The notes under the pieces are model-generated. The model made no database searches. It had not been told where the DNA came from and saw nothing but the letters and a program-made list of their open reading frames with translations. Of a DNA stretch of 64,000 bases, positions 126-58,053 are shown piece after piece. Positions within the stretch are counted from its first letter, which is position 1, and every line of letters begins with the position of its first letter. This DNA is from Candidatus Ryanbacteria bacterium CG10_big_fil_rev_8_21_14_0_10_43_42 (GTDB taxonomy: Bacteria; Patescibacteriota; Minisyncoccia; Ryanbacterales; 2-02-FULL-48-12), in the NCBI GenBank assembly GCA_002793915.1, contig PFEF01000005.1, positions 7,571 to 71,570 on the forward strand, written 5' to 3'. A program made the position numbers and the translations under genes.

Positions 126-485
126 TTACTGATTTGGTCCCAAGGGAATATCGGTAAAGCTGTCAGCCCCTTGTCCAAAGATAAAATCGAGAATAAGGTT
201 TACGAATCCCCAAACGGCAACCATAACGGCAAGAAAGATAATGCCCCACACAATCATCCCGCGGGCTTCTTTTCGTTTTTCTTCATCGCCACTTGCCAGG
301 ATGTAGCGCACAATACCCAAAAGGAAGAGGAATGTGGCAAGAAGAATAAGGAAACTTATCAGGATGTTGATAATATCGGAAGCGTCTGCAAGGAGATCTT
401 CAATATTCACATTTACCTGCGCAAGGGCGATAAAAGGAAAAAGAAGAGATCCTGCCGCAATGCCGTAACGTAAACGATGTATCAT
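126..485 (-). CDS. small membrane protein, VirB2/TrbC-pilin-like paralog P1 (signal peptide + 2 TM)
   Basis: 119 aa. N-terminal signal peptide ends ...ALA|Q. Core motif LLATxxFxxGIVRYIxAxGDxxxxxEARxxIVWGIIFLAVMVAVWGFV is shared with the five upstream paralogs. Confidence 0.6.
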   Translation of the reverse strand: MIHRLRYGIAAGSLLFPFIALAQVNVNIEDLLADASDIINILISFLILLATFLFLLGIVRYILASGDEEKRKEARGMIVWGIIFLAVMVAVWGFVNLILDFIFGQGADSFTDIPLGPNQ

Positions 486-693
486 GACAAGAAAATTATA
501 TTAATAATGTCTGCCCGCGGATAAAGCAGGCAACCTGCTTGTTTGAGTAAGAATTGCATGTATGGTGCATACAATAATGACCTTTGAAAAGTACATATAA
601 ATGTATCGTAATAGTATCATGAGCCAAATAGTGTCTACAATACGCAAGAAAGGAATGTTGGGGATAGTTTTCTCCAGTGAAAATTTTCGTTCA

Positions 694-1089
694 TTACGGA
701 AGGGCGCCTTTATCAAGGCGCGGGCCGGGAGGAATTACATCATTATTATTAATGGCATTTGGGTCATCGAATACAAAGTTAAGAAGAAGCGCAACAAATC
801 CCCAGATGGCAACCATCACAGCAAGAAAGATAATACCCCATACGATAAACTTTCGTGCTTCGGCAATTTGGTCTTGGTCTCCATGTGCCGATATGTACCG
901 CACGATGCCCCACATAAATACCGCCGTTGCTAGAAGTACAAAAAAAACGATACTGGCATTGATAAAATCAGCAACGTCAACGAGAACGTCCCCAATATCA
1001 ATGTTACCCTGGGCTGATGCAAAAAACGGCAGGGATAATATGCTGTACATAACGGCTATGGGTGAGATGTATGCGTAGTGTTTGAACAT
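694..1089 (-). CDS. pilin-like small membrane protein paralog P2
   Basis: 131 aa. Signal peptide ends ...ASA|Q. Two TM helices flank a GIVRYISAHGD...EARKFIVWGIIFLAVMVAIWGF core. Confidence 0.6.
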   Translation of the reverse strand: MFKHYAYISPIAVMYSILSLPFFASAQGNIDIGDVLVDVADFINASIVFFVLLATAVFMWGIVRYISAHGDQDQIAEARKFIVWGIIFLAVMVAIWGFVALLLNFVFDDPNAINNNDVIPPGPRLDKGALP

Positions 1090-1122
1090 AATGATAATTA
1101 TGAATAAAGGACAGTACTTATA

Positions 1123-1518
1123 TTAGGGTAGTCTGTCAATTAATGCGTTCGTATTTCCTTCGGGACCCATTGGTATGGTGGTGAAATCATCTGCTTCTTT
1201 GTTAAAAAAGAAATCGAGCAAGATATTGACGAATCCCCAAACGGCAACCATAACGGCAAGAAGGATAATGCCCCATACGATAAACTTTCGCGCTTCGGTG
1301 CGCTCGTTTTCATCTCCTCCGGCGGCAATATAGCGAACAATACCCCAGAGAAAAAGGAATGTGGCGCCTAAGATGGCGAGGGATATAAGGATGTTGAAAA
1401 GAATGGAAAAAGAATCAAGAACATTGAAAATATCATCTCCCGAAAACTGCGCGAGTACCGCTCCGGGAACGGCAAGAAAAGAAAGGGAAGGCAGGATGTA
1501 GTGTAGAAATGTTTTCAT
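1123..1518 (-). CDS. pilin-like small membrane protein paralog P3
   Basis: 131 aa. Signal peptide ends ...VLA|Q. Same two-TM core (WGIVRYIAAGGDENERTEARKFIVWGIILLAVMVAVWGF). Confidence 0.6.
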   Translation of the reverse strand: MKTFLHYILPSLSFLAVPGAVLAQFSGDDIFNVLDSFSILFNILISLAILGATFLFLWGIVRYIAAGGDENERTEARKFIVWGIILLAVMVAVWGFVNILLDFFFNKEADDFTTIPMGPEGNTNALIDRLP

Positions 1519-1541
1519 GTTTTGTGCGGTGCTGATATTGT

Positions 1542-1838
1542 CTATATGGGCTGTACGATATCTATGGGAATGGTTGGTGCCGGATCAAGGCCTGATCCGA
1601 AAACGAATCCGAAAAGCAGTGCAACAAGTCCCCATACGGCGGTAACGACGGCAAGAGAGACGATGCCCCAGACAATAAATCTTCGTGCTTCAGCGATTTG
1701 GTCTTCATTTCCGCCGGCAGTGAGGTAGCGGACAATACCCCACATAAATACCGCCGTTGCCGTTACCATTAAAAGAGGAATAACGATATTATTTAGAAGA
1801 AGCGCAATATTATGCAGTATGGCATCTATAGTAAGCAT
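1542..1838 (-). CDS. pilin-like small membrane protein paralog P4 (no recognisable signal peptide)
   Basis: 98 aa with the same two-TM core. Its start codon overlaps the P5 stop (TAATG on the minus strand), suggesting translational coupling. Confidence 0.55.
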   Translation of the reverse strand: MLTIDAILHNIALLLNNIVIPLLMVTATAVFMWGIVRYLTAGGNEDQIAEARRFIVWGIVSLAVVTAVWGLVALLFGFVFGSGLDPAPTIPIDIVQPI

Positions 1839-2155
1839 TATAATGCACTGAAGAAGTTAGAAATAACGAGCATGATGGCGCCGGTGCCAAACATAATAAA
1901 CATACCGACAATGCCCCAAATGATATAGCGTTTTCCCGTTGCCTGCGCTTCCTCGCTGTCAGCGCCCGCAATAAACCGGATGAGACCTATAATGAATACT
2001 ACGGTAGCGAGTACAAACAAAAATACAATGGCCGGTAATATGGCCTCATTCCATAGTTTTTTAATGATATCACCAAGCGTAGGGCTTGCCGGAATCTGTG
2101 CATGCGCCGAAGGGATGCCAAATAATAATTCCATGTAGGAAAGAATAATACTCAT
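1838..2155 (-). CDS. pilin-like small membrane protein paralog P5
   Basis: 105 aa. Signal peptide ends ...AHA|Q. Two-TM core with GxxxxGKRYIIWGIVG. Its start overlaps the P6 stop (ATGA). Confidence 0.6.
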   Translation of the reverse strand: MSIILSYMELLFGIPSAHAQIPASPTLGDIIKKLWNEAILPAIVFLFVLATVVFIIGLIRFIAGADSEEAQATGKRYIIWGIVGMFIMFGTGAIMLVISNFFSAL

Positions 2156-2589
2156 GGTACGCTAAGATTTTTAGCAAAGTTTACGATGGCCGTTGCGATA
2201 GCAAAGGCACCGATAACAATGACACCGCCGATAAGTGCCCAATAGAAAGTTGTTTTTGCCTGTTGGAGTTTTTGTTCATTTCCGCCGGACGTAACAAACA
2301 AGAACCCGGCGTAAATAAGAAAAATGGCAACGAGAGGAATGCCTATAGCAATAACGGCATTTGCGATTGCTTGTACGAGTTCGCCGAATGTTTTTGCGGC
2401 GATGGGATTGCTAATACCAAGCCCTCCGGTGGGTCCGGCAGGTGGCGGCGGTGTGGGTGTGGGTGAAGGAGGTGGTGGAGGAGGTGGTGGAAGTGATTGC
2501 GTATTCCCTGATAAGGGCAGGGTGAGTGCAAACAGGGCGAGAAGCATTGCGCGCTTTTTTGCAAAACGGATTACGGATGAAATAGTCAT
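2152..2589 (-). CDS. pilin-like small membrane protein paralog P6 with poly-Pro/Thr linker
   Basis: 145 aa: signal peptide, P8-SPTPTPPPP linker, then TM-SGGNEQKLQQAKTTFYWALIGGVIVIGAFAIA (canonical VirB2/TrbC-like layout). It is the first gene of the minus-strand array. Confidence 0.6.
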   Translation of the reverse strand: MTISSVIRFAKKRAMLLALFALTLPLSGNTQSLPPPPPPPPSPTPTPPPPAGPTGGLGISNPIAAKTFGELVQAIANAVIAIGIPLVAIFLIYAGFLFVTSGGNEQKLQQAKTTFYWALIGGVIVIGAFAIATAIVNFAKNLSVP

Positions 2590-2707: not shown

Positions 2708-5143
2708 ATGATACGCGCGCGCTTTTCCTTTATGCACATACTTTTTTCTGTCGTATTTGGCGTGGGAGGTATGCTGGCGTTATTTTTTACATTCACGTAT
2801 GCACAGTCATCAGCGTGTCATCTTTTGAATTCAAGCAATCCGGTTCCGCAGGGATATGGTGCCGCATATAATTCATTTTCAACAGGAAGAGAGCTTATTG
2901 CCGAGACGTTCTGTGACAATAATACCGTATCTGTTGTGGTAGGACAAAATGAAGATCAAAGTACGGTGGCGGTATGGAAACAGGGGTGGAAATGGAACGG
3001 ATCGTCGTGGTCGGAGATAACACTTTCCGGAACGCCGTTCACGGAAGATAGTAACTGGATTTTAGGAACGGGGCGCGTATTTATTCCGAGCAGTTCTTTT
3101 TCGGAAGGAGTACATGCGGTGGCGGTATTCGCCTGTGTTCTTGAGGGGGGTAATTGGCAATGCGGGTGTCGCGATAACTCTTGCGGTACCAGTAATTGGA
3201 TGCTTCAGCAATTTGCTGTTTCCTCAACACTTCCTCCGTCACCGAGCGGATGTATAGGCGCACCGCAGGGAGTGTGCGATGCGTACGATAACGGAACGGC
3301 AACGGGTACATACTGCAAAGACGGAAATACCCGTACCGTAACGGGGGATCCGGATTATGTATTTTGGGCCGCAAACAACACTATTTACCATCGTCTTTCC
3401 GCGCATGTCTTTATTGAGGTGTCTACGGGAGAATGGGATGCCGGACAAGCGGTATGCGAATCGGTGGAAAGCGCGCTTGATGTTGGCGGCGGCGGACAGT
3501 CATGTATAGGCGCACCGCAAGGAGTGTGCGATGCGTATTTAAATGAAACGGCCACCGGTACATACTGCAAAAATGGCATAATGAGTACCGTAACAGGGAC
3601 GCCCGAATATGTATATTGGGGTGCAAATAATACTATTTATCACCGCATGGCACACAATGTATTTGCCGATGTTCCCCAAGCAGATTGGGACGTATACGAG
3701 ACAGCATGTCAGGCAGGTACGACGCCAAACGGGTGCACGGGCGCGCCACAAGGAGTATGTACGGCATATATTAATGAATCGGCAACGGGCACGTATTGCA
3801 ATGACGGCGTGGAAAGTACCGTGACGGGAGATCCGGATTATGTATATTGGGGTGGGAACGATACCATTTATCATCGTCTTTACGATAGGGTTTTTAATAC
3901 GATTTCAAAAAGCGAATGGGACGGCACGAAAGCTATTTGTGCGGCGGAAGAATCGATTGCCAACTCGATAGTGCAGTGTAAGGGCGCGCCTCAAGGAGTG
4001 TGTGATGCGTATACAAACGGCATAGCAACGGGTACATACTGTAAAGACGGAAATACCCGTACCGTAACGGGAGATCCGGATTATGTATTTTGGGCGGGGA
4101 ATAATACTATTTATTATCGTCTGGGGACTGGTTCATTCGTACCGATTTCAGAGGCGGACTGGAATGCCGGACAGGCGGCATGCGGGAATGAATCGGTGCC
4201 ACGGTGCATAGGCGCGCCTCAAGGAGTGTGTGATGCGTATACAAATGGTACAGCAACAGGCACGTATTGTACGGATGCAAGTACCCGTACCGTAACGGGA
4301 GATCCGGATTATGTATTTTGGGGTGGGAACGATACTATTTACTACCGGCTTGCCGAAGGAGTATTCATACCCGTACCGCGTTCCGAATGGGATGCCGGGC
4401 AGAGTGCCTGTGAGGCAATGGAAAGCCAGCTTTCTTTGGGTACCGCATGCGTAGGCGCTCCGCAGGAATTGTGTACAGCATACAATAATGGAACGGCAAC
4501 GGGTAATTATTGTGCGCATGGCATAATGAGTACGGTTGCGGGAGACCCTGATTATGCATACTGGGGTCCTACCGATACTATTTATTACCGTCTTGCTCAT
4601 AACGTTTTTGTTCCGGTGGCGCGCAATGAATGGGACGCATATGAACAAGCATGCCTTCTTGGTATTAATAATGAAAACAGATGTGAGGGAGCATCAAGTT
4701 TTGTGTGTGACACCTATAAGGAGGGTATCGCTACAGGAACATATTGTCGGTATGGTGCGGAAAGTACCGTAACGGGAGATCCGGATTATGTATATGACGG
4801 TTTTTCCGACACTATTCACTATCGTTTGTGGGATGGTGTGTTTGAAACAGTGTTGAGTCCTAGTTGGGCGGCGGGACAAGCGGTATGTGCGTTGGAAGAG
4901 TCGGTGCGGAATACCTATACAACATGTACGGGCGCGCCGCAAGGGGTATGTAATGCGTATAATAACGGAACGGCAACGGGTACATACTGCAAAGACGGAA
5001 ATACCCGTACCGTAACGGGGGATCCGGATTATGTATTTTGGGGCGGGAACGATACCATTTACTACCGGCTTGATAAAGGATCTTTTGCGGAAATACCCCG
5101 TGCTACCTGGGATGCATTTCAAACACAATGCGATAGTATGTAA
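2708..5143 (+). CDS. secreted repeat protein: N-terminal signal/TM + 8 tandem ~80-aa four-cysteine repeats
   Basis: 811 aa. Repeat consensus C-x-GAPQGVCDAY-N-TATGTYC-DG-RTVTGDPDYVFWGGNDTIYYRL...W-D-Q-C. Repeats 1, 4 and 8 share a ~67-nt identical DNA stretch. Confidence 0.8.
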   Translation: MIRARFSFMHILFSVVFGVGGMLALFFTFTYAQSSACHLLNSSNPVPQGYGAAYNSFSTGRELIAETFCDNNTVSVVVGQNEDQSTVAVWKQGWKWNGSSWSEITLSGTPFTEDSNWILGTGRVFIPSSSFSEGVHAVAVFACVLEGGNWQCGCRDNSCGTSNWMLQQFAVSSTLPPSPSGCIGAPQGVCDAYDNGTATGTYCKDGNTRTVTGDPDYVFWAANNTIYHRLSAHVFIEVSTGEWDAGQAVCESVESALDVGGGGQSCIGAPQGVCDAYLNETATGTYCKNGIMSTVTGTPEYVYWGANNTIYHRMAHNVFADVPQADWDVYETACQAGTTPNGCTGAPQGVCTAYINESATGTYCNDGVESTVTGDPDYVYWGGNDTIYHRLYDRVFNTISKSEWDGTKAICAAEESIANSIVQCKGAPQGVCDAYTNGIATGTYCKDGNTRTVTGDPDYVFWAGNNTIYYRLGTGSFVPISEADWNAGQAACGNESVPRCIGAPQGVCDAYTNGTATGTYCTDASTRTVTGDPDYVFWGGNDTIYYRLAEGVFIPVPRSEWDAGQSACEAMESQLSLGTACVGAPQELCTAYNNGTATGNYCAHGIMSTVAGDPDYAYWGPTDTIYYRLAHNVFVPVARNEWDAYEQACLLGINNENRCEGASSFVCDTYKEGIATGTYCRYGAESTVTGDPDYVYDGFSDTIHYRLWDGVFETVLSPSWAAGQAVCALEESVRNTYTTCTGAPQGVCNAYNNGTATGTYCKDGNTRTVTGDPDYVFWGGNDTIYYRLDKGSFAEIPRATWDAFQTQCDSM

Positions 5144-5215: not shown

Positions 5216-5776
5216 TCAAAGGGGAGTTCCGGTGGGACAAAAACTTAATCCCAGTTCTTTGCCGATGTATTTATCATTGACGCTTTGTGGGACACGGACG
5301 GAAATTTTTAATGTACATGCCTGTTGTGGTGTAATATCCAGAAGCATAAGCAGGTCACGTTCCATTTCAGCACGTACAAAAGGGATATTGGAGCCGTTGT
5401 TTATGCTTACGGTAAAGCTTGTATCCGGCGGGTAATACAAAAGCGTATACGAAGTTTGTTCGTCGTGGAGAAATACAATATGTTCTTCGGTGATTATGAT
5501 CGTGGGATCCGTATAAAAATTATGTACGGACATTGGCTCACCGGACCAGTCGTTAACGGTGAACGTATCTCCCGTAGGTAAGGGGGGTGCGGTAATATTT
5601 CCGTCCCCGGTATTCGATCCCGGTATTGTTCCGGGAACGGGAAGCCCGTTTTGACCGGGATTAATTATGACGTCCGGAGGCGTCACGGATGTACGAAAAA
5701 AGAACGCGTATATACCGAAACCAGTAATACTGACTACGACTATAACTATAACAATAAGTAAATGGCGAATATTCAT
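5216..5776 (-). CDS. hypothetical membrane-anchored protein
   Basis: 186 aa with an N-terminal TM helix (LLIVIVIVVVSITGFGIYAFFF) and a Pro/Gly-rich segment. No recognisable domain. Confidence 0.5.
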   Translation of the reverse strand: MNIRHLLIVIVIVVVSITGFGIYAFFFRTSVTPPDVIINPGQNGLPVPGTIPGSNTGDGNITAPPLPTGDTFTVNDWSGEPMSVHNFYTDPTIIITEEHIVFLHDEQTSYTLLYYPPDTSFTVSINNGSNIPFVRAEMERDLLMLLDITPQQACTLKISVRVPQSVNDKYIGKELGLSFCPTGTPL

Positions 5777-5841: not shown

Positions 5842-7008
5842 TTATAATAGATTACAGTCGCCGGCGGTTGACCAATCTTTCCAGGTATTCCCCGCTTCCG
5901 CATATACCTGACATGCTGCCTTAATGTTTGATTTGGCATTTTTTGCCGCAACAACACAGCTTGTATAGAGGCTTTGGTTTACAATGACATACTTGCCTCC
6001 GCTCAACTGAAATGCGGATGGACAATTGAGTCCTGCCACTGAATGAACAGCTATATTGATTTGAAACAGTCCGATGGAGAAAGGGCAATTATTGGGTGGA
6101 TAAGGCGCGGGGCATCCGCCTCCGGTGGCGCGGTCCACCGTGCTTTCTCTCGTCGGGTTACCCGCGCTTTCAGCGCCACATATCTGCGATGCTTGGTTTG
6201 CCACGGATGCAAAGCATGAGGAAGGAGAAGAAAGAGCGGAGACAGAGCACGGTCCGATGCTTACCGGACTGCATGTTCCCCCTCCCGCCGCCGGACAGTT
6301 ATCTCCCGGATTATTATCTTGGCACGTTGTCCATACTTTGCCGTATGTCGCGTTCTCGGTACATACTTGAGAGCCGCTTGCCGGTCCGCAACCCATAAAA
6401 TTACATGCCTGGGTATCTCCCAAATTTTCCGTACAAATCTCAAAGCATGCTGTGTCCCATATACCGTTTAAACACGCTTGTGTACCAGCACCTCCGGAGG
6501 TGGTTGTGCACGCACGCGTTGGTGTAGCTGTCGGGTCGCATGCTTCCGCGCCTCCTCCCCCTCCTCCGCCGCCCGTAAATGCTGGAACGATACGTGCCTG
6601 ACAGGTAGGAAAATCGTTCCAGGGAAGACCGCCTCCGAAGTTTTTAAATCCGATTGTGGAAAGAAGAGTGCTGATAATAACCCATGCGGCAAATGCAATG
6701 AGAATACCGATAATTGTGTTGTATAGAGCGGCTTTTCCGGTTTCGAGTTGTCCGGGGTTTCCGCGGGATGTAAGAAGGAGTATACCGCCTATAAGAAGGG
6801 ATATAACGGCTACCGGAAGAATAAACTTAAAGAGGATAAAATCGATAATATTCTTGACGAGTACATATAAGTCGCATAAATCGCATGCTTTTGTATCCCC
6901 GCAGGGAACAAGACCGCCACTTTGCGCATGTGCCATGTCACCCAATAATACGCCGCCTAATCCGAAAAGGAGAACAATAATAAAGAGAGTTGTAAGGATG
7001 CGGCGCAT
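5842..7008 (-). CDS. fusion protein: VirB2/TrbC-pilin-like N-domain + poly-Gly + Cys-rich VirB1/IagB-like lytic transglycosylase (SLT) C-domain
   Basis: 388 aa. Signal peptide ends AHA|Q, then two TM helices with SRGNPGQLETGKAALYNTIIG (pilin-like), then G8. The C-terminal domain carries AESAGNP...GLFQIN, matching the catalytic ES and GLMQIN motifs of SLT family 1. Confidence 0.55.
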   Translation of the reverse strand: MRRILTTLFIIVLLFGLGGVLLGDMAHAQSGGLVPCGDTKACDLCDLYVLVKNIIDFILFKFILPVAVISLLIGGILLLTSRGNPGQLETGKAALYNTIIGILIAFAAWVIISTLLSTIGFKNFGGGLPWNDFPTCQARIVPAFTGGGGGGGGAEACDPTATPTRACTTTSGGAGTQACLNGIWDTACFEICTENLGDTQACNFMGCGPASGSQVCTENATYGKVWTTCQDNNPGDNCPAAGGGTCSPVSIGPCSVSALSSPSSCFASVANQASQICGAESAGNPTRESTVDRATGGGCPAPYPPNNCPFSIGLFQINIAVHSVAGLNCPSAFQLSGGKYVIVNQSLYTSCVVAAKNAKSNIKAACQVYAEAGNTWKDWSTAGDCNLL

Positions 7009-7025: not shown

Positions 7026-8336
7026 TTATTTTCTATCGTCGAGTAAGGTTGTAAGGCGTGCATGCGCTTCCGTTGCCGCGGTGTGCGGTTCGCGCCCGGC
7101 CAAAACGGCTTGTATCATATTTGTAAAAATGGTATCGGTTTCTTTTTCATGCGGATCATACCAGGTACGCGCCCGACGCGCCTCTTCATACATAATCGAA
7201 AAAATAGAATTTTCATGTCCGCGAGCAAGTACTGATCTTCGCACCGGCGCCATGCCAAAATTGGCGGCTATAAAGGGCGCTATGTCTTCCGAAGCAAAAA
7301 ATTTAGCAACTTGCCACGCCTCTTCCTGGTTGGTTGATGTTCGGGATACCACGAATCCTTCCGTGCGTCCGTATCCCATACGAAGAGGGGCATCCGTATA
7401 TTGAGGTACTAACGCTACCCCTATATTTACATGCACATTTGCTTTCATAATATCCGTAAGGTCACTGGCACGACCGACAAACATGGCGAGATCTTCGCGT
7501 GCAAAAGCCGATACGGGATTGGAGAATGTGCTATTCCAGCTGTAGGATGTTTTTTCTCTCTTGCCAAAATCCGTATAGAATCGAAGAGCCGATTCCGTAG
7601 GAGAAACATTAATGGAGTTTATGATGCGGCTTTCTCCCAGCGTGACATCTTTTGTTGCCGGATCAACAATAGCAGTGCCTCCCTGTAGAATAAGCAAGCT
7701 CATAATATCTTTTGCGTGTGGGATATTACGCGCAAGACCCATGGCGGATCCTGCACGCGTGATATTATCGCCCCCATTTTTTTTGGTAAGACGGATGCTT
7801 TGAATAAGAAATTCATCCCACGTGGTGGGCGGCAAGGACAGCGCCTCTCCGGCAAATAAATCTTTATTCCAAAATAGCACGAGAGGATCAATGGCGAGAG
7901 GAATGCCGAGGATGAGGCCATTTTGAAAAAATATATCACCGGCGGCTTCAATGTTTGTTTCTTCAAATTCTCTTTGAGTCATGTAAACGGAGGGTACCGG
8001 TGTTATCTTGTCTCGCATACGATGAAGCATGGTGTCGGGAATAAGCCACATATCAGGACCCGTGTCTATAGCAAGAGCGTTGATGAGATCATTTTCGAAT
8101 GTATCCGAACTTTTTTCAACGTAGGAAATTTTAATACTTGAATACTCCCGTTCGAATAAATCAATACTATCTTTCATGACGGAGTACGGATGTATGCCCC
8201 ATATGGTAAGGAATGTTTTTCTATTTGTATTGCGAATACCGGGGATAATACCAAGTAAAATAAGTACCACGACAAAAATAATGGCAATGGTGCCGATATA
8301 AATGGCAAGCTGGAGTTTGCTAGTTTCTTTATTCAT
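7026..8336 (-). CDS. extracellular solute-binding protein (ABC transporter, family 1-like)
   Basis: 436 aa. N-terminal TM anchor; the overall layout is consistent with MalE-type periplasmic binding proteins. Confidence 0.55.
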   Translation of the reverse strand: MNKETSKLQLAIYIGTIAIIFVVVLILLGIIPGIRNTNRKTFLTIWGIHPYSVMKDSIDLFEREYSSIKISYVEKSSDTFENDLINALAIDTGPDMWLIPDTMLHRMRDKITPVPSVYMTQREFEETNIEAAGDIFFQNGLILGIPLAIDPLVLFWNKDLFAGEALSLPPTTWDEFLIQSIRLTKKNGGDNITRAGSAMGLARNIPHAKDIMSLLILQGGTAIVDPATKDVTLGESRIINSINVSPTESALRFYTDFGKREKTSYSWNSTFSNPVSAFAREDLAMFVGRASDLTDIMKANVHVNIGVALVPQYTDAPLRMGYGRTEGFVVSRTSTNQEEAWQVAKFFASEDIAPFIAANFGMAPVRRSVLARGHENSIFSIMYEEARRARTWYDPHEKETDTIFTNMIQAVLAGREPHTAATEAHARLTTLLDDRK

Positions 8337-53892: not shown

Positions 53893-54417
53893 TAGGGAGT
53901 CTGTATAAGCTAATGTGGCATTGACGAAAGGGGCGATATTTCGTATACTGTACAGGATCCGCGAATTGTTTCTTGACTTGTCTTATCCACAGTTTTTAGG
54001 GCAAGTTCCTTTGGAAATAGAGGAAATTATTCTTATAATGGGTGTACCTTTCGCGTAAGCGATGTTGCGGTGAGCGGAATGTAGCGCTTTTTGTTTCTTT
54101 ACTATCCGTCTATACAATATATTAGCTTGAATGATGGTGGCATATTTTCACTTGAAATATATGTACATGTCGGTATCATTCAGGTCGATATGTTAGTCCG
54201 GAGAATGTAATCCGGTTCTGCAAGACTGAACATTAACAAATGAATAGTGAGCAAAAAGACGGCACAGAAATGTGTGAAGTTTTTTCATTTGTTATTCGAC
54301 AGAGTTATTTCACAAGTCGATTACATTATTAGTTCGGATGTGCGTGTTGTGCGTATGGTCGGTATGTGCAACATATTACACACATCCAAAAAAACATTAC
54401 TATTAGATTTTAAGCAT

Positions 54418-57400
54418 ATGAGTAGATATCAGAAGATGGTGCGAAAAGCCACTTCCGTATTTGTGAGCTTGACGACGACTATCTGGCTTGCCGGATTCGG
54501 TACACTTGTACCTTTTGCCGCTAACGCGCAATCGGTAGCGGATTTGCAGGCGCAGATTAACGCTCTCTTGGCGCAGATTACGGCGCTTCAAGCGCAGTTA
54601 GCAGCTGGCGGCGGATCAGTTTCCACCGGCGCTGTATCGTGTAACTTTACACGAAGTCTTACAATCGGAGTGCAGGGCGAAGATGTTCGTTGCTTACAGC
54701 AATACCTTAATGGCGCAGGCCACACGCTTGCTTCCAGCGGCGCTGGATCACCGGGAAGCGAGACCACATACTTCGGTCCCATTACCCGCGCGGCAGTATC
54801 AAGTTGGCAGGCGGCAAATGGCGTGAGTCCAACGGCAGGATATTTCGGTCCTATTTCGATGGCGAAATATAATGCGTTAATTGCGGCCATTCCTCCGGTA
54901 ACGGGTGGTGGTACCGGAACAGGCACGGGCACCGGAACAGGCACGGGCACAGGTACTACCGGAACGGGTATTACGGTAGGATCAGCATCCCAGCCGGCGG
55001 CAACGCTTGCGGTACAAAATGCTATCCACGTTCCATTTACCTCGTTTACCTTAACGGCATCGTCCGACGGTAACGTATTGGTAGATTCCATAACGGTGGA
55101 ACGAACGGGCTTGGCAAATGATGCCGCGTTTGCAGGAGTGGTTCTCTTAGATGAGAACATGATGCAAATTACGCAGAATCCAAAAACATTTAATTCTAAT
55201 CATCAGGCAATCTTGACCGATGATTTCACGGTTCCCGCCGGACAGACCAAGCGGTTTTATCTCGCAGGTAATATGGCGGCAAGTCTTACGGCATACGCAG
55301 GACAGGTGGCAAACCTTCGCTTGGTAGCGGTAAATTCAACCGCGCAGGTGAATGGCGCACTTCCTATAGAAGGAACGGGACACACTATCAACGCTTCCCT
55401 TTCCGTAGGTTCGGTAACGCTTACCCGCGGTACGAACGATCCAAATACGGGCGTTACGAAAGAAGTGGGAACAACGGGCTATACGTTTTCTTCCATAAAG
55501 GCAACAGCCGGATCCGCGGAAGATATGCTGGTCAAGTCCATTCGATGGAACCAGTCCGGATCAGCCTCCAAGGATGATTTGGAAAACGTTATAGTAGTTG
55601 ATACAAAAACAGGAAATGAATATACGCCGACGGTTTCTTCCGATGGCAAATACTACTCTGCCGATTTTGGTAGCGGTATTTCTATCAAGAAGGGAGAAAA
55701 TACGGAAGTATATATCAAGGGAGACATTAAGTCGGGTTCCGGTCGTACGGTAGACTTCGACTTATACCGCTATGATGACTTTGTATTCGAAGGTAAGACC
55801 TTTGGTTACAAGATTAAACCATCTTCAACCGAAACATCGGCTGACAACGATGACGACTCCGAATTCCAGGATTCACAACCACGTTATGATGCAAGTCAGG
55901 TTGAAATCGGCACGGGAAGTCTTCGCGTTGAGAAATCAAATGACGTGCAGGCAAGTAACGTTGCAAACGGTGCCGACGGCGTAGAACTTGGTTCGTTCAA
56001 GTTTGATGTAGACGGCGAGGCAATTAGCTTCACGCAGTGGGTTCTTACGATCGCAACAACCGATGCCGACAGTGGTGGTGAGAACAGTGTTCTTACCAAC
56101 ATCACGGTATACGACTCAAACGGTAATGCTGTAGCTGGCCCTACTGATCCAAATTCAGCAGGAAGCGCAGTAACCATTACCGATTCCATAACGGTACCGG
56201 TGGGTGATAATATCTACACGGTGCGCGGTGACTTAAATAACAACTGGCAAAACAACGATACGATTATTGTTTCCTTTACCCCATCTAGCGCATTATCGCA
56301 GGTAACGGGTGATACAACAGGAAACACTATCACTCCAACGCCTTCCACGGCTGTTTCGGCAAACGTGCAGACAATTAAGGCGGGAGGTCTTGTTGTAACG
56401 CCTTCAACTTCGCTCGCAAGCCAGACCCTTATCGAAGGATCAAATGGCGTTGAGCTCGGACGATTCGTTCTTGATGGAACCGCTTCCGGTGAAGACATTA
56501 AGATTACGGTCGTGAAGATTCTTGGTGATGTAACAGGTGCAGACATCAACGATTTCGTAAGTTTGCAATTGTTTGACGGCACAACGGCTTTGAACACCGG
56601 TTCAAATGTTCTCCAGCCGGCGGCAACTGCGGATGGCACCGACCTCGTCCTCTCCTTCACACTTGATTCTCCGGGACTTATTATTCCAAAGGGAAGCACA
56701 AAGATTATTTCCCTGAAGGGTAATATTACCACCGCGGCAAACGATGGCGATCAGGCCAAATTTGACTTCTCGGCAAGCGTTTCCGATGGTGACTGGGGTA
56801 CATCCGGTGTAGATTCCGGGCAGGATATTGTCGAAACCTTCTCAACGGCGGCAGGTGCAACAATCACCACGCAATCAGGTGGCGGTTGGAGCGTTTCAGC
56901 GGCACCTTCCAAGCCAACAGAGAAATGGGTAACGGCGGGAGCAACGGGTGTAACATTGAACGTACTTCGTTTCAACTCAACGTCTGAAGAATTTGCTCTT
57001 ACCGATCTTCGCTTACAGATCGACACAACGGGTTCATCTACGGGTGCCGACTTCACGAAGATCTATCTCTATGATGGAAGTACGCTCTTGCAGTCCAAGA
57101 CACCTGCCTTTACGAATGGCGTAGAAGACTTTACTTTCCCAACAACGGGAACAGGGGCCTTTGTTATTCCGAAAGATGATTTCAACGAGCTTACTATCAA
57201 GGCTGATCTCGCAACCATTGGCGCATCCCAGCCAGGTACGGCAGGACAGCTTGTGGGTGTTGATTACGATGGTGCTAATTCAACAAAGAATAAGGCACAG
57301 GGTAAGGCATCCGGAACAAGTAAGCATTCCAGTACGGCATCTGACGTAACCGGAAACGGTGTTGTCTACTTCCGTTCGGTACCAACCATTGAACGGGTAA

Positions 57401-58053
57401 GTCTTCCACAAACAACGCTTACATCTGGTAATCATGTGCTTTATCGGTTCAAGATAACGGCAGACCCAGCATATGATGTTGCATTGCATAAAGTAGCCTT
57501 TAGTGTTGCAACAACCGGTCCGGCAACTATGGCTTTCTCCGGTTCTCCAGCAAACTTCACGCTTTGGAACACAACTGATAACAAGAGAGTATCAGCGGCG
57601 ACAGGTACAACAAATGCGATCTATGACGACATTAACTACTACAATGCAAACAGTCAGTTAATTGTTCGTATTCTCGCAGATACCACCGATTATTCCAGCG
57701 CATGGGTAACTATTCCGGCAGGTCAGACACATACCTTTGATCTTCGCGCGGATATTATCAGTGATGGTTCTGGTGATTCGGTGTCTACGAAACTCCTTGG
57801 TGATGATGCGCGGGACCCAAGACTTTCGTTAACGGGATCGGCTGCCGTTACCATGCAGACTGTTGCTGCGATAGACGATGGTCATAATGCGGGTGGAACC
57901 TCGAACGTTGCTTCCAGTTCCAACTTCATATGGTCAGACTTCTCTACTGACGCAACGACGACGCATGCTATAACCACGCATGACTGGATGAACGGCTTCA
58001 AAGTGCCGGGACTCCTCTCAACGGGTCTTGACTCATCGACATTGTCGAACTAG
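54418..58053 (+). CDS. large cell-surface protein (signal anchor, coiled coil, PG_binding_1-like domain, (GT)n linker, ~1000-aa Ser/Thr/Gly-rich beta region)
   Basis: 1212 aa from ATG 54418. SVADLQAQINALLAQITALQAQL coiled coil; CLQQYLN...YFGPITRAAVSSWQAANGV PG-binding-like; GTGTGTGTGTGTGTTGTG linker; no Cys thereafter. Confidence 0.7.
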   Translation: MSRYQKMVRKATSVFVSLTTTIWLAGFGTLVPFAANAQSVADLQAQINALLAQITALQAQLAAGGGSVSTGAVSCNFTRSLTIGVQGEDVRCLQQYLNGAGHTLASSGAGSPGSETTYFGPITRAAVSSWQAANGVSPTAGYFGPISMAKYNALIAAIPPVTGGGTGTGTGTGTGTGTGTTGTGITVGSASQPAATLAVQNAIHVPFTSFTLTASSDGNVLVDSITVERTGLANDAAFAGVVLLDENMMQITQNPKTFNSNHQAILTDDFTVPAGQTKRFYLAGNMAASLTAYAGQVANLRLVAVNSTAQVNGALPIEGTGHTINASLSVGSVTLTRGTNDPNTGVTKEVGTTGYTFSSIKATAGSAEDMLVKSIRWNQSGSASKDDLENVIVVDTKTGNEYTPTVSSDGKYYSADFGSGISIKKGENTEVYIKGDIKSGSGRTVDFDLYRYDDFVFEGKTFGYKIKPSSTETSADNDDDSEFQDSQPRYDASQVEIGTGSLRVEKSNDVQASNVANGADGVELGSFKFDVDGEAISFTQWVLTIATTDADSGGENSVLTNITVYDSNGNAVAGPTDPNSAGSAVTITDSITVPVGDNIYTVRGDLNNNWQNNDTIIVSFTPSSALSQVTGDTTGNTITPTPSTAVSANVQTIKAGGLVVTPSTSLASQTLIEGSNGVELGRFVLDGTASGEDIKITVVKILGDVTGADINDFVSLQLFDGTTALNTGSNVLQPAATADGTDLVLSFTLDSPGLIIPKGSTKIISLKGNITTAANDGDQAKFDFSASVSDGDWGTSGVDSGQDIVETFSTAAGATITTQSGGGWSVSAAPSKPTEKWVTAGATGVTLNVLRFNSTSEEFALTDLRLQIDTTGSSTGADFTKIYLYDGSTLLQSKTPAFTNGVEDFTFPTTGTGAFVIPKDDFNELTIKADLATIGASQPGTAGQLVGVDYDGANSTKNKAQGKASGTSKHSSTASDVTGNGVVYFRSVPTIERVSLPQTTLTSGNHVLYRFKITADPAYDVALHKVAFSVATTGPATMAFSGSPANFTLWNTTDNKRVSAATGTTNAIYDDINYYNANSQLIVRILADTTDYSSAWVTIPAGQTHTFDLRADIISDGSGDSVSTKLLGDDARDPRLSLTGSAAVTMQTVAAIDDGHNAGGTSNVASSSNFIWSDFSTDATTTHAITTHDWMNGFKVPGLLSTGLDSSTLSN

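Follow-up and report, generated by a model that had tools for sequence, protein, structure and literature searches.

VirB1 of Agrobacterium and its relatives IagB and IpgF (PF01464, GH23) are separate periplasmic enzymes of lysozyme-superfamily fold, in which a helix ends with a Glu-Ser pair and a G-L-x-Q motif is present. The family-1 lytic transglycosylases carry in addition a third conserved motif of the AYNxG type. VirB1 is associated with genes for VirB2-type pilins, and its secreted fragment VirB1* makes contact with VirB2 and VirB5 and promotes formation of the T-pilus, which provides a precedent for a VirB1-VirB2 partnership. In Gram-positive type IV secretion systems (T4SSs), PrgK (pCF10) and TraG (pIP501) have been cited as VirB1 equivalents (PMC12102498). 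These proteins of single-membrane envelopes combine an N-terminal anchor, a plain TM helix, with an extracytoplasmic lysozyme-like/SLT domain and with CHAP or LytM domains; the anchor keeps the lysozyme-like/SLT domain beside the secretion machine. Wall-cutting enzymes coupled to other machines include FlgJ of Salmonella, in which a rod-cap domain is joined to a muramidase for the flagellum, and the EtgA-EscI pair of the type III secretion injectisome. In both cases the carrier is a cap or rod protein and not a pilin, and the FlgJ enzyme belongs to another glycosidase family.

Pilins of the type IV secretion kind would not be expected in bacteria with a single membrane. In the only patescibacterium analyzed genetically, epibiotic growth was found to require them. 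A 2025 survey of 3,035 Patescibacteria genomes found VirB2-like pilins to be widespread while most pilin-bearing genomes had no detectable VirB1 (PMC12102498). The authors of the survey concluded that pilus biogenesis seems not to need a VirB1 homologue and did not exclude other glycosidases (PMC12102498). In the saccharibacterium Southlakia epibionticum ML1 the T4SS cluster includes an array of PF18895 pilins, and a lysozyme-like/CHAP protein (SEML1_0006) and an M15B-like protein (SEML1_0007) are encoded in the same numbered gene run as pilins SEML1_0014-0019 (PMC10633639, supplement). Genes of this cluster were reported to be essential for epibiotic growth (PMC12102498).

The gene analyzed here originates from an ultrasmall groundwater bacterium, Candidatus Ryanbacteria, and encodes a protein in which a VirB2-like pilin module and a lysozyme-like domain are covalently joined. 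The features of the locus are given below with their positions in the window, by which we mean the whole 64-kb stretch of DNA that was analyzed.

126..2589, minus strand: array of six free VirB2-like pilin paralogues (PF18895 scores above 26.6 bits for four, 23.8-25.0 bits for two)
5216..5776, minus strand: conserved partner gene, 186 aa with an N-terminal membrane anchor; in all 7 genomes examined the fusion is directly followed by a homologue
5842..7008, minus strand: whole gene for the pilin / lysozyme-like fusion protein, an intact ORF from ATG to stop, 388 aa
5845..6276, minus strand: lysozyme-like domain of the Pfam SLT_3 family, predicted to be catalytic (aa 245-388, 10 Cys)
6055..6072, minus strand: GLFQIN substrate-binding motif, aa 313-318, after the conserved S311 (from the translation)
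6166..6171, minus strand: Glu280-Ser281, the proposed catalytic pair, with which helix 267-281 terminates (from the translation and the helix position in the AlphaFold2 (AF2) model)
6277..6549, minus strand: beta spacer domain rich in Cys (10 in aa 154-244; AF2 strands 164-226, pLDDT about 72-91)
6550..6642, minus strand: flexible linker, aa 123-153, with C136 and a G8 run at 146-153 (pLDDT below 50 at residues 124-128 and 137-152)
6643..6924, minus strand: mature VirB2-like pilin module, aa 29-122 (PF18895 score, AF2 hairpin)
6925..7008, minus strand: signal peptide, aa 1-28, ending AHA|Q (hydrophobic segment, helix 2-30 in the AF2 model; putative cleavage site, placed by the A-x-A motif)
7026..8336, minus strand: membrane-anchored solute-binding-protein-like gene (SBP_bac_8 and SBP_bac_1 matches)

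Public annotation describes genes of this type as 'hypothetical' or plain 'TrbC/VirB2 family', and the protein studied here is identical in sequence to NCBI 'hypothetical protein COU90_01555' of Candidatus Ryanbacteria. An earlier note, made from the DNA sequence, had raised the possibility that the fusion is an artifact of an assembly or frameshift error merging two separate genes. The identical 388-aa protein was found on independent assemblies from four sources (ENA, JGI, Logan and NCBI), and homologues of 37-46% identity had the same layout over 91-98% of the length. Furthermore, the architecture is common to homologues at 37-57% identity and to more than 100 cluster representatives. Nothing was found in favor of an artifact, the probability of which we consider negligible, and this explanation is refuted by the independent contigs, the identical protein and the recurrent architecture. 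The pilin-lysozyme fusion is a genuine protein architecture, and one that occurs commonly across its phylum.

The sequence elements listed in the earlier note, which are the AHA|Q signal, the hydrophobic segments, the G8 run, the Cys-rich part and the AESAGNP and GLFQIN motifs, are all present. Hydrophobic segments occur at about residues 1-28, 47-84 and 92-122, so the signal peptide is followed by two hydrophobic helices with a short charged loop between them. In the pilin module an N-terminal segment with Cys residues (C36, C42, C45) precedes helix 44-80, which is connected through the loop SRGNPGQLETGK to helix 85-118; SRGNPGQLETGKAALY is at residues 81-96. In the N-terminal part of the AF2 model, helices 2-30, 44-80 and 85-118 were predicted, the arrangement being that of a helical hairpin. 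The PF18895 (T4SS_pilin) model matched residues 63-115 with 28.6 bits, which is above the Pfam gathering threshold of 26.6, whereas PF04956 (TrbC) stayed below its threshold (19 bits against 27.9). The best Foldseek match of the module was VirB2 of the Agrobacterium T-pilus (8exh), with 27% identity and a target-normalised TM-score of 0.60, a match that is not significant (E 0.95). The proposal that the N-terminal part is a VirB2-type pilin module was thus borne out by the PF18895 score and the predicted hairpin, and the gene most likely encodes a specialized paralogue of the Patescibacteria VirB2-like pilin.

None of the 24 Cys residues of the fusion protein falls within a hydrophobic segment. 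The hairpin is flanked by 4 of them, and the middle and C-terminal domains contain 10 each. These groups, each of even number, are all predicted to face outward, and C136 of the linker is invariant in the close subfamily. A C-x-C-x2-C clamp preceding TM1 was tested as a mark of enzyme-carrying pilins, but it occurred in 34 of 128 only and was rejected as a general feature. The spacer region is variable across the family, with PKD domains at this position in some relatives (P0018, P0020).

The catalytic residues proposed for the C-terminal domain are strongly conserved. Among 173 relatives, E280 and S281, which are part of the AESAGNP motif (aa 279-285), were found in 172, G313 and Q316 in all 173, S311 in 170, and D292, a second conserved acidic residue on a neighboring strand, in 161. 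Since these positions are near-invariant, the resemblance of the motifs to those of lytic transglycosylases is not coincidental. In the AF2 model E280 is located at a helix end, like E35 in hen lysozyme. Fold comparison showed a lysozyme-like fold with a c-type lysozyme, not an SLT domain, as the closest structural match. An hhalign alignment with hen lysozyme pairs E280 with E35 and D52-Y-G-I-L-Q with S311-I-G-L-F-Q; this alignment is not significant (probability 1.2%) and was used for residue mapping only. Aligning the domain to a genuine PF01464 domain (P0033) placed ESAGNP on ESAGNP and SIGLFQ on SSGLMQ, again weakly (E 0.005). The lysozyme or lytic-transglycosylase fold expected by the earlier note is therefore supported by the fold comparison together with the conserved Glu-Ser and GLFQ motifs. 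Relative to c-type (GH22) lysozymes, which have the closest fold, the domain has Ser311 at the position that the non-significant hhalign alignment pairs with Asp52 of hen lysozyme.

Membership of the VirB1/IagB/IpgF family itself, as claimed in the earlier note, did not hold. The window protein gave no PF01464 match at E ≤ 1, and matches were weak and limited to 5 of 19 relatives (best E 0.0029). The family consensus continues after GLFQIN as ...CPxAF...LYxxCVxAA...N-I-xx-A-C...W..W, in which an AYNxG-type third motif was not seen. PF18896 (SLT_3) was matched by all 19 aligned relatives (best E 4.9e-11), with scores above the threshold of 27 bits in, for instance, P0016 (39.6 bits), P0039 (37.3 bits) and P0050 (33.9 bits). 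The window protein itself scored below threshold, with 18.3 bits for the full length and 20.7 bits for the isolated domain; it matched the family profile, which includes this protein, with an E-value of 4.7e-46. From these sequence comparisons the C-terminal domain is assigned to PF18896, a sister family of PF01464. NCBIfam contained no family matching the fusion protein, and PDB searches returned no meaningful match for the whole protein, for the C-domain profile or for the partner profile.

Compared with VirB1, IagB and IpgF, the fusion thus shares the fold, the Glu-Ser pair at a helix end, the G-L-x-Q motif and, with VirB1, the association with genes for VirB2-type pilins. It differs in that the enzyme is covalently attached to a pilin module, belongs to PF18896 with far more disulfides predicted, and is structurally nearest to c-type lysozyme. 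The single-membrane setting and the N-terminal anchor with an extracytoplasmic lysozyme-like domain are shared with PrgK and TraG, but anchoring here is by a signal peptide together with a VirB2-like hairpin, and SLT_3 is the sole recognizable enzyme domain. As in S. epibionticum there is an array of PF18895 pilins; the wall enzymes of that organism, however, are separate proteins encoded beside virB4/virB6, whereas the fusion has no T4SS core gene within 10 kb.

The gene neighborhood connects the fusion to the partner gene and, in most genomes, to pilins. In all seven genomes the fusion and partner genes either overlap or are separated by 8-65 nt. In five of them (the window/L001, L004, L006, L008 and L011) the fusion is followed by the partner and then by a pilin array; L005 and L007 have the fusion-partner pair as well. 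Synteny in related genomes, which the earlier note had suggested to examine, is thus conserved for the partner throughout and for the pilin array in five cases. Partner homologues are membrane-anchored proteins of about 180 aa, and their alignment revealed two invariant Cys residues and a GLSFC motif in the outer domain. The partner protein had no match in Pfam, NCBIfam or the PDB; it may be an inhibitor or immunity factor, or an assembly factor. The distance of 700 bp given in the earlier note for the pilin array had to be corrected. The nearest pilin gene (2152-2589) is 3,253 bp from the fusion gene, and the partner gene and a gene for a four-Cys repeat protein lie in between. It is the latter gene, ending at 5143, that is 699 bp away. 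The pilin array extends past the start of the window, with eight pilins on contig L001.

On the other side, the solute-binding-protein-like gene ends 17 nt upstream of the fusion gene, and the same gene is upstream in L004, L006 and L008. It is probably co-transcribed with the fusion gene; whether it forms part of the fusion system is uncertain. The surroundings consist of housekeeping genes (gyrA, mfd, hisS, ftsA, ftsZ, murJ) in conserved chromosomal synteny. VirB4, VirB6 and other T4SS core genes were absent from the 64-kb window and from the 10 kb around the fusion in the seven genomes, and consequently the pilin genes alone provide the link to a working secretion machine. A tblastn search against plasmids and phages gave no match to the fusion gene, and thus no sign that it travels on known mobile elements.

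The C-terminal SLT_3-type domain is widespread, with 1,291 cluster representatives (about 1,300 clusters at 50% identity). Among 122 short representatives, 77 had a PF18895 match and 82 a PF18896 match, and a custom HMM detected the pilin module in 128 of 177 proteins (database matches plus cluster representatives). A search for related loci retrieved only 13, which were found via the pilin-module patterns. The SLT_3 domain also forms the C-terminus of long membrane proteins other than pilins (850-1,190 aa, three TM segments) and is therefore not exclusive to pili. The earlier note had regarded the architecture as unfamiliar; it is indeed unusual for classical T4SSs, but with about 1,300 clusters it is not rare, and both domains were already in Pfam. 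Literature searches on PF18896, PF18895 and pilin-lysozyme fusions in Patescibacteria yielded no description of the architecture and no paper mentioning PF18896. In the literature searched the fusion is thus undescribed, while its component domains have already been modeled in Pfam.

The pilin scaffold also carries other domains. In L009 the same Cys-clamped scaffold is fused to a bona fide PF01464 SLT domain (62-70 bits), and this gene occupies the same ClpB...miaA slot as the SLT_3 fusion of L005. The replacement of SLT_3 by a classical SLT domain on the same scaffold suggests that it is the wall-cutting function that is selected for, whichever domain provides it. In this single case the partner gene is absent. 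Elsewhere pilin modules are joined to adhesin-like Ig domains, for example Big_5 and TIG in L019, suggesting that the module serves as a display scaffold. A third C-terminal domain on the same scaffold, with the pattern H-x2-G-x-K-x-D...H-W-D, was found in L012, L013 and P0017. Its assignment as an M15/LAS-type peptidase was dropped after Pfam and PDB profile searches gave nothing; database matches were only to unannotated small secreted proteins from actinobacteria, Deinococcus and a few eukaryotes.

We tentatively favor a function of the fusion as a pilin-anchored peptidoglycan glycosidase that does the job of VirB1 for the Patescibacteria pilus. The protein would be exported by the Sec system and inserted in the membrane as a two-helix hairpin, which would place the C-terminus outside the cell. 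The outer part consists of the flexible Gly-rich linker, the disulfide-rich beta spacer and the small disulfide-rich domain of lysozyme fold with intact Glu-Ser and GLFQ motifs, which is predicted to cut the glycan strands of peptidoglycan. The pilin tether would keep the enzyme where the neighboring pilin array assembles, and local opening of the cell's own wall would allow the pilus to pass. The fusion would then act as a built-in VirB1, with a role like that of PrgK and TraG, and the membrane-anchored partner of about 180 aa would probably control or assist the enzyme. Against this function count the PF18896 score of the window protein below the Pfam threshold, the lack of nearby T4SS core genes and the occurrence of SLT_3 on non-pilin proteins. 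The tightly linked membrane-anchored partner, moreover, is equally typical of a toxin-immunity pair.

The coupling of wall opening to pilin insertion that the earlier note had envisaged is plausible from the domain composition, but attack on the wall of a host fits the data about as well and is a serious rival, although we consider it somewhat unlikely. The lysozyme domain, displayed on the pilus as part of a minor subunit or on the cell surface, would then serve as a weapon or feeding tool that cuts the host wall, and the partner would confer immunity by shielding the wall of the producer. Cultivated Patescibacteria live as obligate epibionts, and a role in breaching the host envelope has been proposed for their lytic transglycosylases (PMC11665869), which agrees with a host-directed function. 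The disordered stretch 124-152, the beta domain and the PKD domains of relatives would give the enzyme reach, the tight coupling to the partner in all seven genomes resembles effector-immunity pairs, and the loss of the partner in the one case with a classical SLT domain as well as the Ig-bearing pilin modules point in the same direction. However, a pilin extended by 270 aa is a putative pilus subunit only, searches detected no resemblance of the partner to known lysozyme inhibitors, and SLT_3 domains are also found on non-pilin membrane proteins. A broader version, which we regard as doubtful, is that the Patescibacteria VirB2-like pilin is a modular display scaffold. Paralogues with wall-degrading enzymes (SLT_3, classical SLT and perhaps the third domain) or with adhesin-like Ig domains would join or nucleate the pilus. 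Such an 'armed' conjugative-type pilus would present enzymes at the host surface, with the downstream membrane protein for self-protection.

The occurrence of SLT_3 on other anchors, in the long proteins with three TM segments, would also agree with a general membrane-anchored autolysin in which the hairpin does no more than hold the enzyme in the membrane for remodeling of the cell's own wall during growth and division, independently of any pilus or secretion system. The lack of T4SS core genes and the housekeeping surroundings in conserved synteny are in line with this, but most short family members have, as their anchor, a PF18895 pilin module in particular, pilin arrays adjoin the gene in five of seven genomes, and two different lysozyme-superfamily domains are found on the same pilin scaffold, which makes an autolysin distinctly unlikely. 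A catalytically dead, glycan-binding module that tethers the pilin to the wall, comparable to alpha-lactalbumin and some Rpf-like proteins, is very improbable. It is suggested by the Ser that pairs with the catalytic Asp52 of c-type lysozyme in the non-significant alignment. Lytic transglycosylases and g-type lysozymes, however, work without an equivalent of Asp52, and the general-acid Glu is retained almost throughout the family (172 of 173) together with the neighboring Ser, the whole GLFQ motif and, in 161 relatives, the second acid D292.

The family is large, with about 1,300 clusters, a near-invariant active site and a conserved partner gene, and its putative enzyme would be a hydrolase or a lytic transglycosylase. 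The wall-cutting function may hide in a pilin paralogue, within the PF18896 family that is invisible to VirB1 profiles, and the fusion may thereby supply the wall-opening enzyme that Patescibacteria pilus systems seem to be without.

The open reading frame at 5842-7008 on the minus strand encodes a 388-aa protein that is identical to the NCBI entry 'hypothetical protein COU90_01555' of a Candidatus Ryanbacteria metagenome-assembled genome. Ryanbacteria are members of the Candidate Phyla Radiation, or Patescibacteria. The gene has ordinary chromosomal surroundings, including gyrA, mfd, hisS, ftsA, ftsZ, murJ, lepA and prfA. All sequence features described in an earlier note were found in the protein: a signal-like N-terminal segment up to AHA (followed by Q), SRGNPGQLETGKAALY between two further hydrophobic helices, a G8 run after these helices, and the motifs AESAGNP and GLFQIN. 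The 24 cysteines fall in groups of 4, 10 and 10 (all even), none of them within a hydrophobic segment, which is consistent with an extracytoplasmic, disulfide-bonded protein. An assembly artefact was excluded as the origin of the fusion because the same 388-aa protein, without differences, occurs on ENA, JGI, Logan and NCBI assemblies and diverged homologues align over its full length.

The pilin-like character proposed for the N-terminus was borne out by a match to T4SS_pilin (PF18895) of 28.6 bits against a threshold of 26.6; the TrbC/VirB2 family PF04956 gave a sub-threshold 19 bits. All six small open reading frames at 126-2589 match PF18895 as well, four above threshold and two at 23.8-25.0 bits, and a longer contig of the same genome carries eight consecutive PF18895 pilin genes. 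One free pilin paralogue (1123-1518, minus strand) also showed a weak, sub-threshold NCBIfam match (22.9 bits vs 40) to the Mbov_0395 family, the pilin-like conjugal transfer proteins of mycoplasma ICEs. The full-length AlphaFold2 model of the fusion (pLDDT 81) runs from a signal helix through a hairpin of two helices (44-80, 85-118) and a linker without order (124-152) to a beta-rich Cys domain (ca. 160-230) and finally the C-terminal domain. In a Foldseek search of the PDB with the whole model the Agrobacterium T-pilus subunit ranked first, at a non-significant E of 0.95. By the established hairpin topology of VirB2 the C-terminus should lie outside the membrane, which is where a disulfide-rich enzyme would have to sit.

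PDB sequence searches with the fusion and with its C-terminal domain gave no match. The fusion scored only sub-threshold against SLT_3 (PF18896, 'lysozyme like domain'; 18-21 bits, threshold 27), and all 19 aligned relatives match this family (best E 4.9e-11), with weak matches to the classical SLT family PF01464 in 5 of the 19. Modeling of residues 240-388 on the relatives' alignment was confident (pLDDT 92.8, pTM 0.86). E280 forms the C-terminal end of helix 267-281 in the AlphaFold2 model, the classical position of a general-acid glutamate. A non-significant hhalign alignment with hen lysozyme paired E280 with E35 and S311-I-G-L-F-Q-I-N with D52-Y-G-I-L-Q-I-N; the Asp52 position would thus be taken by Ser, which is what one expects of a lytic transglycosylase or a g-type enzyme. 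The candidate catalytic glutamate is well conserved: of 173 family members, 172 keep E280 and 172 keep S281, while G313, Q316, C329 and C351 occur in all, S311 in 170 and D292 in 161. With D292 conserved on the adjacent strand, the sequence may allow a hydrolytic mechanism as well as a lytic transglycosylase one. The resemblance of ES...GLFQIN to VirB1/IagB-type enzymes holds at the superfamily level, but the domain does not belong to PF01464; its family is PF18896.

When 1.84 billion representatives were scanned in full by HMMER with a profile of the C-terminal domain, 1,291 proteins matched at E <= 1e-3, and 972 still matched at E <= 1e-10. Among the best 150 of these 1,291 matches the domain is nearly always at the extreme C-terminus. 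For the best 122 representatives of <= 520 aa, PF18896 was found in 82 and PF18895 in 77 (E <= 1e-3), and a custom HMM of the pilin module was positive in 128 of 177 proteins from homologue searches and the HMMER representatives. The proteins lacking the pilin module are fragments or have a second architecture of 850-1,190 aa, in which a large N-terminal cytoplasmic region and 2-3 predicted TM segments precede the same C-terminal domain. In examples of the latter (P0041, P0043, P0049, P0093 and ca. 20 others) the N-terminal region has no signal peptide, and no Pfam family covers it. The longer second TM segments would read as two helices, three in all, and the C-terminus would then again lie outside. 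Source labels are exclusively Patescibacteria lineages (Ryanbacteria, Parcubacteria, Paceibacteria, Giovannonibacteria, Minisyncoccia, Magasanikbacteria), and searches of plasmid and phage collections with the fusion found no match.

The immediate neighbors of the fusion gene are:

2708-5143, plus strand: four-Cys repeat gene encoding a secreted 811-aa protein, located between pilin array and partner gene but read in the opposite direction
5216-5776, minus strand: partner gene encoding a 186-aa membrane-anchored protein, with a homologue right after the fusion in every one of seven genomes
7026-8336, minus strand: solute-binding-protein-like gene with SBP_bac_1/SBP_bac_8 matches, ending 17 nt upstream of the fusion

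Synteny was confirmed in related genomes, as the partner directly follows the fusion in all seven genomes examined, with spacing from overlap to 65 nt. The partner proteins (ca. 140-280 aa) share an N-terminal membrane anchor, two invariant cysteines and a GLSFC motif, and gave no match in Pfam, NCBIfam or the PDB. A pilin array comes after the partner in 5 of the 7 genomes; in the window the nearest pilin gene is 3.25 kb from the fusion, not ca. 700 bp as noted earlier, and 699 bp is the distance to the four-Cys repeat gene. The latter encodes ca. 8-9 repeats of ca. 90 aa with four cysteines each (C.GAPQGVCDAY.NGTATGTYC...), matches no Pfam family and is missing from the corresponding position in the related genomes examined. 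Four genomes have, upstream of the fusion, a gene for a membrane-anchored solute-binding-protein-like product. Neither an ABC permease nor an ATPase gene lies beside the copy at 7026-8336; its product might bind released wall sugars, or the gene may merely be conserved synteny beside gyrA. VirB4 and VirB6 were not found within 10 kb of the fusion in any of the seven genomes. Elsewhere in the window, a 1,268-aa protein (54247-58053, plus strand) with PG_binding_1 (peptidoglycan-binding) as sole recognisable domain may be another cell-wall-related surface protein.

Related pilin scaffolds carry other C-terminal domains:

L009, 3946-4974: gene of P0033, pilin module with PF01464 SLT domain
L013, 5974-7005; L012, 2064-3032; and protein P0017: pilin scaffold with a different C-terminal domain
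L019, 5824-9882: adhesin-like pilin fusion of 1,353 aa, with T4SS_pilin at the N-terminus and the Ig-like domains Big_5 and TIG after it

In P0032 and P0033 a bona fide PF01464 domain (70 and 62 bits, respectively) sits on the same Cys-clamped scaffold ('GGLVPC..C..C' before TM1, Cys after TM2). The P0033 gene is flanked by clpB and miaA/ahpC, which is the slot of the SLT_3 fusion in another genome (L005), and no partner gene follows it. The presence of two different lysozyme-superfamily domains on one scaffold suggests that pilin-tethered wall cutting is the selected trait. In L012, L013 and P0017 this Cys-clamped scaffold ends in a domain of ca. 135 aa with the pattern H-x2-G-x-K-x-D...H-W-D, which also occurs stand-alone in small secreted proteins of Streptomyces, Knoellia, Deinococcus and a few eukaryotes. 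This domain has no match in Pfam or the PDB, and a guess that it is an M15/LAS-type peptidase found no confirmation there. The L019 metagenome-assembled genome, labelled Gammaproteobacteria, is probably misbinned.

We tentatively propose, at somewhat less than an even chance, that the fusion serves as a built-in VirB1, a peptidoglycan glycosidase anchored through its pilin module. It would cut the glycan of the producer's own wall and open it where the pilin array assembles. PrgK and TraG, hydrolases with a membrane anchor in Gram-positive systems, offer a parallel for such a role; conceptual parallels are FlgJ, which combines rod cap and muramidase in one protein, and EtgA, which binds the rod protein EscI. 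In the main rival reading the enzyme would be directed at the host and presented on the pilus or on the cell surface, and the partner would be an immunity protein. This reading agrees with the close pairing of the fusion and partner genes, with the length of the spacers and with pilin-adhesin fusions such as that of L019, and we regard it as a serious though less likely alternative. An autolysin working independently of the pilus is improbable, and an inactive binding module very improbable.

Both domains have Pfam models and already appear together in precomputed annotations, so the architecture is not unknown to databases. We found no paper mentioning PF18896, and none of the papers found to mention PF18895 describes the fusion. 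In recent reviews and surveys of Patescibacteria T4SS, including PMC12102498, pilins and wall hydrolases figure as separate components. In S. epibionticum, the numbered gene run that holds the pilin array (SEML1_0014-0019) also includes separate lysozyme-like and M15B-like proteins (SEML1_0006/0007) (PMC10633639). The novelty would be a VirB2-type pilin that covalently bears a VirB1-type function through a sister lysozyme-like family. VirB1 is undetectable in most Patescibacteria with VirB2-like pilins, and the authors of that survey could not exclude other glycosidases (PMC12102498); a built-in VirB1, if true, would fill this gap. This is a large, clean and testable case, with a bearing on pilus building in ultrasmall epibionts and on how they handle cell walls.
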